Shown: piece after piece, positions 17,161 to 19,129 of the stretch | Numbering within the stretch: the stretch's first letter is position 1 | Layout of the letters: every line of letters starts with the position of its first letter | UHGV virus genome: UHGV-0124847 | DNA length: 19,129 nt | From: a virus | Reading direction: 5' to 3' (one strand) | Notes under the pieces: generated by a model | What the model was told of the DNA's origin: nothing | Databases searched by the model: none | Seen by the model: the letters and a program-made list of their open reading frames with translations, nothing else | Made by a program: the position numbers and the translations under genes

Positions 17161-17345
17161 ACGCCACAATTCAAACGATACCAGAGCTTCTTATCCAGAC
17201 ACGAGGCAATCAGACCGAAGTGGCAAGGATGCTTTCCTGCGCAAGAGGAACAGTGCTCAAGTACAACCGAGACAGCAAAGGCGAGCGTCACGCAATAGTT
17301 AACGGCGTCCTGATGGTCAAACAGGGCAAGAGGGGAAGACGATGA
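17157..17345 (+). CDS. ninH: NinH-like small HTH protein
   Basis: 62-aa ORF whose YGNQTEVARxLxCxRGTVxKY...HAIVNxVLMV region parallels lambda NinH. Confidence 0.75.
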   Translation: MNATIQTIPELLIQTRGNQTEVARMLSCARGTVLKYNRDSKGERHAIVNGVLMVKQGKRGRR

Positions 17346-17965
17346 GACTCGAAAGCGTAGCTAAATTTCATTCGCCAAAAAGCCCAATGATGAGCGACTC
17401 ACCACGGGCTACGGCTTCTGACTCTCTTTCCGGTACTGATGTGATGGCTGCTATGGGGATGGCGCAATCACAAGCCGGATTCGGTATGGCTGCATTCTGT
17501 GGTAAGCACGAACTCAGCCAGAACGACAAACAAAAGGCTATCAACTATCTGAAGCAATTTGCACACAAGGTATCGGGGAAATACCGTGGTGTGGCAAAGC
17601 TCGAAGGAAATACTAAGGCAAAGGTACTGCAAGTGCTCGCAACATTCGCTTATGCGGATTATTGCCGTAGTGCCGCTACGCCGGGCGCAAGATGCAGAGA
17701 TTGCCACGGTACAGGCCGTGCGGTTGATATAGCCAAAACAGAGCAGTGGGGGAGAGTTGTCGAGAAAGAGTGCGGAAGATGCAAAGGCGTCGGCTATTCA
17801 AGGATGCCAGCAAGCGCAGCATATCGCGCTGTGACGATGCTAATCCCAAACCTTACTCAACCCACCTGGTCACGCACTGTTAAGCCGCTGTATGACGCTC
17901 TGGTGGTGCAATGCCACAAAGAAGAGTCAATCGCAGACAGCATTTTGAATACGGTCACACGTTAG
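17342..17965 (+). CDS. Q: Q late-gene antiterminator (lambda type)
   Basis: 207-aa ORF essentially colinear with lambda Q as I recall it (MRLESVAKFHSPKSPMMSDSPRATASDSLSGTDV...), including the Cys-rich zinc region (CRDCHGTGR...CGRCKGVGY). Confidence 0.9.
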   Translation: MRLESVAKFHSPKSPMMSDSPRATASDSLSGTDVMAAMGMAQSQAGFGMAAFCGKHELSQNDKQKAINYLKQFAHKVSGKYRGVAKLEGNTKAKVLQVLATFAYADYCRSAATPGARCRDCHGTGRAVDIAKTEQWGRVVEKECGRCKGVGYSRMPASAAYRAVTMLIPNLTQPTWSRTVKPLYDALVVQCHKEESIADSILNTVTR

Positions 17966-18007
17966 CAGCATGATTGCCACGGATGGCAACATATTAACGG
18001 CATGATA

Positions 18008-18036
18008 TTGACTTATTGAATAAAGTTGGGTAAATT
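18008..18036 (+). promoter_or_regulatory. pR' late promoter with the overlapping Q-binding (qut) region
   Basis: -35 TTGACT (18008..18013), 17-bp spacer, -10 TAAATT (18031..18036). Promoter region matches lambda pR' as I recall it. Confidence 0.7.
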
Positions 18037-18071
18037 TGACTCAACGATGGATAAATGCACTCGTTAAATAA

Positions 18072-18107
18072 AGCCCTGAGTTAATAGCTCGGGGCTTTTT
18101 GCGTTTT
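18072..18107 (+). terminator. Intrinsic terminator close to pR' (tR'-like)
   Basis: AGCCCTGAG-ttaatag-CTCGGGGCT (9-bp stem, one G.U) followed by TTTTTGCGTTTT, about 30-60 nt after the predicted pR' start. Confidence 0.65.
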
Positions 18108-18400
18108 AAGCACGGCCTTTCTGAAAGCACATCAAACCAAATACCAGACAGACAAAAATAATCACCTTATCCGCTGTGGCTACGGTGCGGTGTGCTTTGC
18201 ATAAAAGAAAACCAGCGCAATGGCTGGCTTCGTGAAAGCGGGTGGCAGGAGGTTGCACTAACAACCTCATGCCGTTTTGCCCGTGCATATCGGTCACGAA
18301 CAAATCTGATTACTAAACACAGTAGCCTGGATTTGTTCTATCAGTAATCGACCTTATTCCTAATTAAATAGAGCAAATCCCCTCAATGAAGGGGTAGAGC

Positions 18401-18604
18401 ATGTACCGTATGGACAAAATCAGAGAATGGTTCAGTTACAGCTTCGGAGGACTGACTGCGATGGGTGGCATTCTCTCCCTGAATGACTGGGCTGTCATCA
18501 TTGGTATTCTTTGTACTGTCGGCACATTTGGCATCAACTGGTACTACAAGCGCAAAGAGCGCGAGGACAGATTGAATGGCAATGTCACCGGCACTACGAA
18601 ATAG
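18401..18604 (+). CDS. S: Class II holin (pinholin-like) with dual-start motif
   Basis: 67-aa ORF with two hydrophobic segments and a charged C-terminus. Starts M-Y-R-M (Met1 and Met4 separated by a basic residue), the classic holin/antiholin dual-start arrangement. Followed by a SAR endolysin. Confidence 0.75.
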
Positions 18605-19079
18605 CGTAATAGCGGCGATAAGTGGCGGGGCTATTGCTATAGCATCTGTGTTAATCACTGGGCCAAGTGGTAACGATGGTCTGGAAGGTGTCAGCTACAT
18701 ACCATACAAAGATATTGTTGGTGTATGGACTGTATGTCACGGACATACCGGAAAAGACATCGTGCTCGGTAAAACGTATACCGAAGAAGAATGCAAAGCC
18801 CTCCTGAATAAAGACCTTGCCACGGTCGCCAGACAAATTAACCCGTACATCAAAGTCGATATACCGGAAACAACGCGCGGCGCTCTTTATTCGTTCGTCT
18901 ATAACGTGGGCGCAGGCAATTTCAGAACATCGACGCTTCTTCGCAAAATAAACCAGGGCGATATCAAAGGCGCATGTGATCAGCTACGGCGCTGGACATA
19001 CGCTGGCGGTAAGCAATGGAAAGGGCTGATGACTCGCCGTGAGATTGAGCGTGAAGTCTGTTTGTGGGGTCAGCAATGA
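18576..19079 (+). CDS. R: SAR endolysin (T4-lysozyme-like muramidase with N-terminal signal-anchor-release domain)
   Basis: 167-aa ORF. Weakly hydrophobic Gly/Ala-rich N-terminal segment ([23 protein letters not shown]) then the lysozyme catalytic region ([25 protein letters not shown], Glu-Asp-Thr pattern). Confidence 0.85.
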
Positions 19080-19129
19080 ACAGAGTAACCGCGATTATCT
19101 CCGCTTTGGTTATCTGCATCATCGTCTGC
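19076..19129 (+). CDS. Rz: Rz i-spanin, 5' end only (truncated by window edge)
   Basis: ATG overlaps the endolysin stop (ATGA). The 18 codons [18 protein letters not shown] match the lambda Rz N-terminal signal-anchor. Confidence 0.7.

Follow-up and report, generated by a model that had tools for sequence, protein, structure and literature searches.

The control region between the antiterminator gene Q and the first lysis gene in this DNA is very probably a Q-dependent late-gene switch of the lambdoid phages, built in the P22/HK97/HK022 arrangement, in which an early terminator, tR', would be overridden by Q. By homology, the interval from Q to the holin start in the window (the whole 19,129-nt stretch of UHGV virus genome UHGV-0124847 that we analyzed) is a standard late control region of the P22/HK97/HK022 type, one that has already been described and annotated. 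This assignment draws on the identity of its elements to those of lambda and P22, on the thermodynamics and conservation of the terminator hairpin and on the distribution of the alleles among phages and bacterial genomes. A preliminary description had seen here a lambda-type Q and late promoter joined to a shortened leader with an early terminator; that observation is confirmed, with every element that it described lying where it was placed, and the interpretation put upon it is only partly supported.

The window belongs to a lambdoid prophage of E. coli. Its best matches form a mosaic (HK544, HK140, CUS-3, mEp213 and Stx phages), each covering at most 44–56% of its length, and the stretch 17966–18400 recurs with 100% identity in the chromosome of E. 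coli JBEHAAB-19-0176 (NZ_AP028869). Upstream of this stretch lies the gene for the late antiterminator Q of the lambda/P22 'type 1' (17342..17965, plus strand), an open reading frame that belongs to the lambda Q family by its match to Pfam PF03589 (Antiterm, E = 2.7e-57) and whose product is identical to lambda Q at 203 of 207 residues (98%) and to P22 gp23 at 199 of 207 (96%). Lambda Q and P22 gp23 are reported to be mutually substitutable (PMC8022706), and both the Q of the window and its binding site fall within this pair. On the downstream side, the late operon opens with a class II HP1-type holin gene (18401..18604, plus strand; Pfam PF16080, E = 4.4e-21), which possibly has a dual start at Met1 and Met4 (MYRMDK) and which RefSeq annotates from Met4 at an identical locus. 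An endolysin gene of the phage lysozyme family follows (18576..19079, plus strand; Pfam PF00959, E = 8.7e-46; lysozyme RrrD in RefSeq) and overlaps the holin gene by 29 nt.

We place the late promoter pR' at 18008..18036 on the plus strand, with a -35 hexamer TTGACT at 18008–18013, a 17-nt spacer and a -10 hexamer TAAATT at 18031–18036. Because a scan for promoter consensus by itself gave no more sites than chance would (2 found versus 2.9 expected), this call rests on the identity of both hexamers to lambda pR'; both are also identical to those of the promoter annotated as 'P late or P R'' in P22. The Q-binding element, or qut, spans 18014..18056 on the plus strand, its limits having been transferred by gap-free alignment from the annotations of HK140 (18014–18035) and P22 (18027–18056). 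As defined in HK140, the Q-binding site differs from that of lambda at a single base (A to G at 18025, where P22 also has G); at 18017, it has A as in lambda, where P22 has T. At the level of sequence, then, a Q-binding element lies between the two promoter hexamers as in the type 1 systems, and the -10-like element AACGAT that induces pausing in lambda is present in identical form at 18043..18048.

The first A of AACGAT, 18043, is taken as +1 through a gap-free alignment with the P22 feature 'similar to phage lambda P late RNA 5' nt', an annotation that, as its wording tells, itself leans on lambda. A -10-like element at +1 to +6 is associated with a sigma70-dependent pause when the RNA is about 16 nt long (PMC4604602), and the pause at which Q loads would be expected here near 18058–18059. 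Positions +1 to +8 are identical to lambda. The initial transcribed region then differs from it at four bases between +9 and +20, including a change of GGG to GGA directly after the pause element; all four are identical to P22. Given these four differences, the strength of the pause could differ from that in lambda.

A strong intrinsic terminator, tR', follows almost at once (18070..18107, plus strand, +28 to +65). Its stem (18070–18098) has 13 pairs, 6 of them G-C, and is followed by TTTTTGCGTTTT to 18107; the G/C core occupies 18073–18095 (+31 to +53) and the U-tract 18096–18107 (from +54). The predicted fold has an energy of -19.1 kcal/mol, compared with -7.9 ± 2.4 kcal/mol for shuffled sequences (z = -4.7), and none of 200 shuffles folded as well. 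The window therefore has an intrinsic terminator between its late promoter and its first late gene, as other type 1 systems do, and the assignment is supported by conservation of the helix and by the terminators annotated at homologous positions in P22 and Emek. Release of the transcript would be expected near +58 to +62; together with +1, this position predicts that a short RNA of about 60 nt is made constitutively when Q is lacking (18043..18102, plus strand).

One could instead read the hairpin at 18070–18098 as independent of Q, serving mainly to end the early right transcript that carries Q or acting on leftward transcription. The Q stop codon is 105 bp upstream of it, and an A-tract flanks its 5' arm, by which it could terminate transcription from either direction. 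We consider this very improbable as the main role, however, as the hairpin keeps a fixed distance downstream of pR' in 86 loci (see below), no second strong plus-strand terminator lies between pR' and the holin gene, and the curators of P22 assigned the hairpin as tR'. The Q-regulated role and the others are in any case compatible with one another.

Aligning window positions 17930–18420 with lambda 44474–45209 locates precisely where the two part and rejoin. The match extends from the end of Q to 18065 (+23). Beyond the Q stop codon it has five mismatches, namely the one in the Q-binding site and the four between +9 and +20. It resumes at 18228 and continues, near-identical, for 173 bp to the holin start. 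Between these sharp joints, at 18065/18066 and 18227/18228, 162 bp of the window (18066..18227, plus strand) face 405 bp of lambda (44610–45014) without alignment. A global MAFFT alignment scattered matches across this segment, which might have pointed to remote homology, but they vanished when local alignments were compared with shuffled sequences (score 16 versus 17.1 ± 2.1), and we rejected that idea. The leader is accordingly not of the lambda type, which has a 6S RNA and tR' at +193: it has no detectable homology to lambda 44610–45014, the tR' hairpin included.

Much of the preliminary description is borne out by this alignment. It had called Q lambda-like, in keeping with the 98% identity, and had said the same of the pR' hexamers and first transcribed bases, which are identical to lambda through +8, and of roughly 170 bp upstream of the holin gene, which correspond to the near-identical 173 bp. 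It was right that the central leader is unlike lambda, and the alignment to the lambda pR'-to-S region that it proposed for mapping breakpoints finds the interval not colinear throughout, with breaks at the two joints just given. The strong terminator that it saw about 30–60 nt after the promoter is the hairpin and U-tract at +28 to +65, and the short transcript that it expected to fall far below the length of lambda's is predicted, from +1 and the position of the terminator, at about 60 nt compared with about 193 nt.

The same central segment is far from peculiar to this prophage. Whereas they have no detectable similarity to lambda, the 162 bp are clearly homologous to P22 (local alignment score 120, compared with 15.5 ± 2.1 for shuffled sequences), and the segment as a whole is homologous to HK97 and HK022 as well. 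We found that a megablast search with 17966–18400 against a phage collection returned 179 records, with query coverage of 80% or more in 68; identities are 95–99% for HK544, HK140, HK106, mEp234, HK022, HK97, Sf101 and Emek and about 88% for P22-like Salmonella phages. Searched alone, the central segment returned 99 records, 89 of them covering at least 80% of it, and identity over the central 176 bp is 76% in P22 and 94–99% in the E. coli phages. The curated P22 record (BK000583) places 'P late or P R'', a site 'similar to phage lambda qut' and the late RNA 5' nucleotide at the homologous positions, and a terminator at 37917–37945 (+31 to +59) described as 't late or t R'; antiterminated by gene 23 protein action to allow full late transcription'. 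The same qut site is annotated in the Emek record, where the hairpin is marked as a rho-independent terminator, and the records of HK140, HK544 and the mEp phages mark pR' and qut. The window thus carries a P22-type leader, homologous from pR' to the holin gene and with its terminator at about +31 to +59.

The lambda-type center is the less widely sampled of the two in the phage collection, where it occurs at full length in 24 records. Twenty of these are 100% identical to lambda, many of them being lambda itself or laboratory derivatives. The record MW057783.1 (Campylobacter phage CJLB-4, 48,361 bp) matches lambda at 100% across the leader segment specific to lambda and looks like lambda DNA filed under another name. 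Among 5,426 complete E. coli genomes, 261 have the short-type center (coverage of at least 80%) and 217 the lambda-type center. On these counts, the two centers are common alleles of about equal frequency in E. coli, and neither can be called derived.

These distributions bear directly on what the preliminary description had proposed, a recombinational replacement of the central leader. The part of this claim that stands is a mosaic difference from lambda with sharp joints; the part that does not is a 'shortened' derivative of lambda, as the whole interval is of the P22/HK97/HK022 type. A recent event in this prophage, in which the middle of a lambda-type leader was replaced to leave an unusual distance between Q site and terminator, would account for the joints at 18065/18066 and 18227/18228 and for the lack of similarity between them. 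It is nonetheless extremely doubtful: the same arrangement and spacing recur in 89 phage records, 86 viral contigs and 261 E. coli genomes, and the lambda-type center, in 217 genomes, is no commoner. Because a diverged form (76% identity) is present in P22 and its relatives, the allele appears to be old rather than recent.

From the homology to lambda and P22, we infer the start site, the pause, the termination and the Q-dependent readthrough, which together suggest the following course of events for the preferred reading, a Q-dependent switch. The promoter pR' would fire constitutively, and RNA polymerase still holding sigma70 would pause at about +16, sigma70 recognizing the -10-like AACGAT at +1 to +6. 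Lacking Q, polymerase would leave the pause and terminate at tR' (+28 to +56, then the U-tract), releasing an RNA of about 60 nt, and the lysis and virion genes would stay unexpressed because of this termination. Once made from the early right operon, Q would bind DNA between the -35 and -10 hexamers, join the paused polymerase and make it resistant to terminators, so that transcription would read through into the structured non-coding leader (about 300 nt) and on into the lysis genes. PMC4914094 describes the same scheme: from its DNA site between the promoter hexamers, Q alters the paused polymerase, and terminators no longer stop it. Relative to lambda, the non-homologous allele is confined to the interval that begins at +24 and ends 173 bp upstream of the holin gene, and its terminator lies much nearer the promoter. 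The preliminary description had added that this distance affects antitermination efficiency and late-gene timing; our literature searches found no published support for such an effect, and the subject of PMC4914094 is where Q engages polymerase relative to RNA length and not the position of the terminator. Searches on the late promoter of HK022 and HK97 returned nothing useful, and one on tandem terminators of lambda's late operon gave no match.

If the switch works in this way, lysogens carrying the allele should make the RNA of about 60 nt constitutively, and it might be more than a by-product. PMC7547250 cites work from the 1970s onward on short RNAs that are regulated by antitermination and start at the late promoters of phages lambda, 21, phi80, 82 and P22. 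The terminated pR' transcript of Stx phages is processed to a 74-nt Hfq-binding small RNA, StxS, and the same has been proposed for other lambdoid short RNAs (PMC7547250), a precedent by which the RNA here might act in trans as a regulator in the lysogen. The predicted RNA does end in a strong hairpin and U-tail after an A/U-rich stretch. This resembles the general form of many small regulatory RNAs. We would still call such a role quite improbable: the RNA matches no Rfam family, and its first 23 nt are already constrained by the functions of pausing and Q loading, so their conservation is uninformative about a second role. A search of the whole window against Rfam gave nothing at the gathering threshold, and the sole hit at E ≤ 1 in a permissive search of 17300–19129 was a chance snoRNA match. 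The short transcript also contains a 9-codon open reading frame, MHSLNKALS (18055–18084), that starts at +13. The same ATG opens a 69-aa frame through the terminator in P22-like phages, where it is annotated as gp63 in epsilon34; the frame is probably no gene, since it is not conserved.

To see how the module is put together, we scanned viral contigs with the 3' arm of tR' and the bases after it, which located at least 120 loci. Of 124 with enough upstream sequence, 86 have the lambda/P22 promoter and AACGAT at a fixed distance, the 3' arm starting at +49 or +50. Another 33 loci join the same 3' arm and downstream leader to four different promoter classes, those of ES18 and ST104 among them. 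At least five late-promoter classes, in other words, share the tR' 3' arm and the leader that follows it (18070–18113; loci L006, L008, L037, L075 and L121). The 5' arm of the hairpin differs between classes and is complementary all the same, as in ES18 (GCCCTGCA/TGCGGGGC) compared with the window (GCCCTGAG/CTCGGGGC); since a differing 5' arm remains complementary to the common 3' arm, the joint of exchange lies inside the hairpin. Across 17 distinct variants of the 8-pair tR' core, 98.5% of cells are paired and one pair has changed on both sides; as a test of covariation this is weak, the 3' arm having been fixed by the search pattern.

Downstream of tR', the space up to an A-tract (AAAAGAAAA) and hairpin (CCAGC/GCTGG) at 18203..18227 on the plus strand is a variable slot, 162 bp long both here and in P22; in lambda, the replacement takes in the terminator too. 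In HK633, pR' and tR' are the same, but the sequence after them is unrelated, about 690 bp longer and free of annotated genes (locus L009, 945–1640); its return to the common leader falls precisely on the A-tract and hairpin. The slot appears to be an insertion hotspot. Part of the HK633 slot sequence resembles the central segment of lambda (GGTAAGAGCATT...). The A-tract and hairpin lie at the right-hand joint of the mosaic with lambda, and in homologs the stem is kept as CCAGC/GCTGG, CCCAG/CTGGG or CCCGC/GCGGG. On the minus strand, 18231..18208 gives a terminator-like match with a fold z score of -3.5. The one candidate from a scan for a leftward promoter that would feed it is weak and lies within the holin gene (18498..18470, minus strand); we rejected it as an explanation, since this holin gene is not common to the P22-type phages that keep the hairpin.

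Beyond tR', the leader at 18108–18400 behaves as a conserved, structured RNA that is apparently non-coding. The leader of the window folds with a z score of -4.2, and RNAalifold on 19 homologs predicts 56 pairs, 15 of which have compensatory changes. When the structure was instead specified from the inverted repeats of the window, 12 of 42 pairs changed on both sides among the 19 homologs, compared with 7.9 ± 1.1 in shuffled alignments, and none of 500 shuffles reached 12. Sliding the partners by one to three columns lowered pairing from 87% to 37–50%. The helices with the best support are three. A long-range helix (inverted repeat I2, 18124–18138/18184–18198) closes a domain at 18124..18198 and has compensatory changes at six pairs among the homologs. 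A hairpin at 18244..18273 (inverted repeat I4, plus strand like the others) has a 12-bp stem (18244–18255/18262–18273), an energy of -22.6 kcal/mol, a z score of -3.8 and five pairs with compensatory changes. The third, at 18379..18394, lies just upstream of the holin start codons, and its stem is CCCC/GGGG or CCTC/GAGG, with both sides changed in seven sequences. After the 12-bp hairpin (18244–18285), the window and lambda have GUUUUG and P22 has UGAUCUG; within the right-hand block of lambda type, this hairpin might serve as a second, weak terminator. No tRNA genes lie in the leader, unlike some late leaders of Stx phages.

That the central segment might instead encode a small protein is suggested by two open reading frames in the window, of 51 aa (18192–18347, plus strand) and 65 aa (18106–18303, minus strand), and by the hypothetical proteins annotated there in HK140, mEp234, ECP1 and Sf101 and the gp63 of epsilon34. 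Neither frame keeps its reading frame or length, however, and frames and stops differ in HK97, P22, ES18 and ST104. Substitutions preserve the RNA helices, and RefSeq annotates nothing at the identical E. coli locus. We found the idea most improbable and rejected a protein-coding leader, its frames being unconserved across homologs and without Pfam matches.

For the structured RNA, by contrast with a coding segment, the stretch nearest the holin gene offers two mutually exclusive helices on a near-invariant GGATTTGTTC (18298..18380, plus strand): I5 (18298–18306/18330–18338) and I3 (18329–18341/18368–18380). About 91% and 93% of their cells, respectively, are paired among the 19 homologs, whose sequences vary too little to discriminate between them; in I3, one pair changes on both sides, from U-A to A-U, in six sequences. 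The I3 helix abuts the hairpin over the holin ribosome-binding site. That hairpin, at 18379..18394, occupies what we take to be the place of the lambda sdi structure. In lambda, sdi determines which of the two start codons of S is used. Literature searches on sdi returned nothing useful. The hairpin is kept with compensatory changes even though the class II HP1-type holin is unrelated to lambda S. RNase III sites in the lambda late leader were reportedly described by Daniels et al. in 1988, and we know of no function assigned to the structured leader. It is conceivable that I5 and I3 act as an RNA switch controlling holin translation and hence the timing of lysis, or else that the RNA of about 60 nt is a trans-acting small RNA in lysogens; that one or the other of these holds we regard as unlikely.

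Set beside known systems, the early part of this switch has a parallel in the Stx phages, whose lysogens make a short RNA from a constitutive late promoter terminated immediately downstream (PMC7547250). StxS has a demonstrated regulatory function, unlike the RNA here, which has no curated RNA-family match. ES18, ST104 and other lambdoid phages share the terminator 3' arm GGGGCTTTTTGCGTTTTAAGCAC and the leader after it, whereas their promoter, initial transcribed region and hairpin 5' arm are unrelated to those of the window; in ES18 and ST104, the Q-like genes are also longer. With lambda, the window shares Q (98%), pR', the Q-binding site, the transcript to +23 and the last 173 bp of the leader, and the mechanism is presumably the same. 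The two differ in having 405 unrelated bp in lambda versus 162 here and in the point of release, which PMC4914094 gives as +193 for the lambda late transcript and which we place at about +60 in the window. P22, HK97, HK022, HK140, HK544, the mEp phages, Sf101 and Emek are homologous to the window over the whole interval from Q to the holin start, and the P22 group shares its promoter, pause element, terminator distance and structured leader, with a near-identical Q-binding site. The holin differs within this kinship: it is of the class II HP1 type here, as also in ST104 and Emek, whereas P22, HK97 and HK140 have one like lambda S. Placed in this company, a leader with an early terminator is no anomaly, and lambda is not the norm against which other phages should be read.
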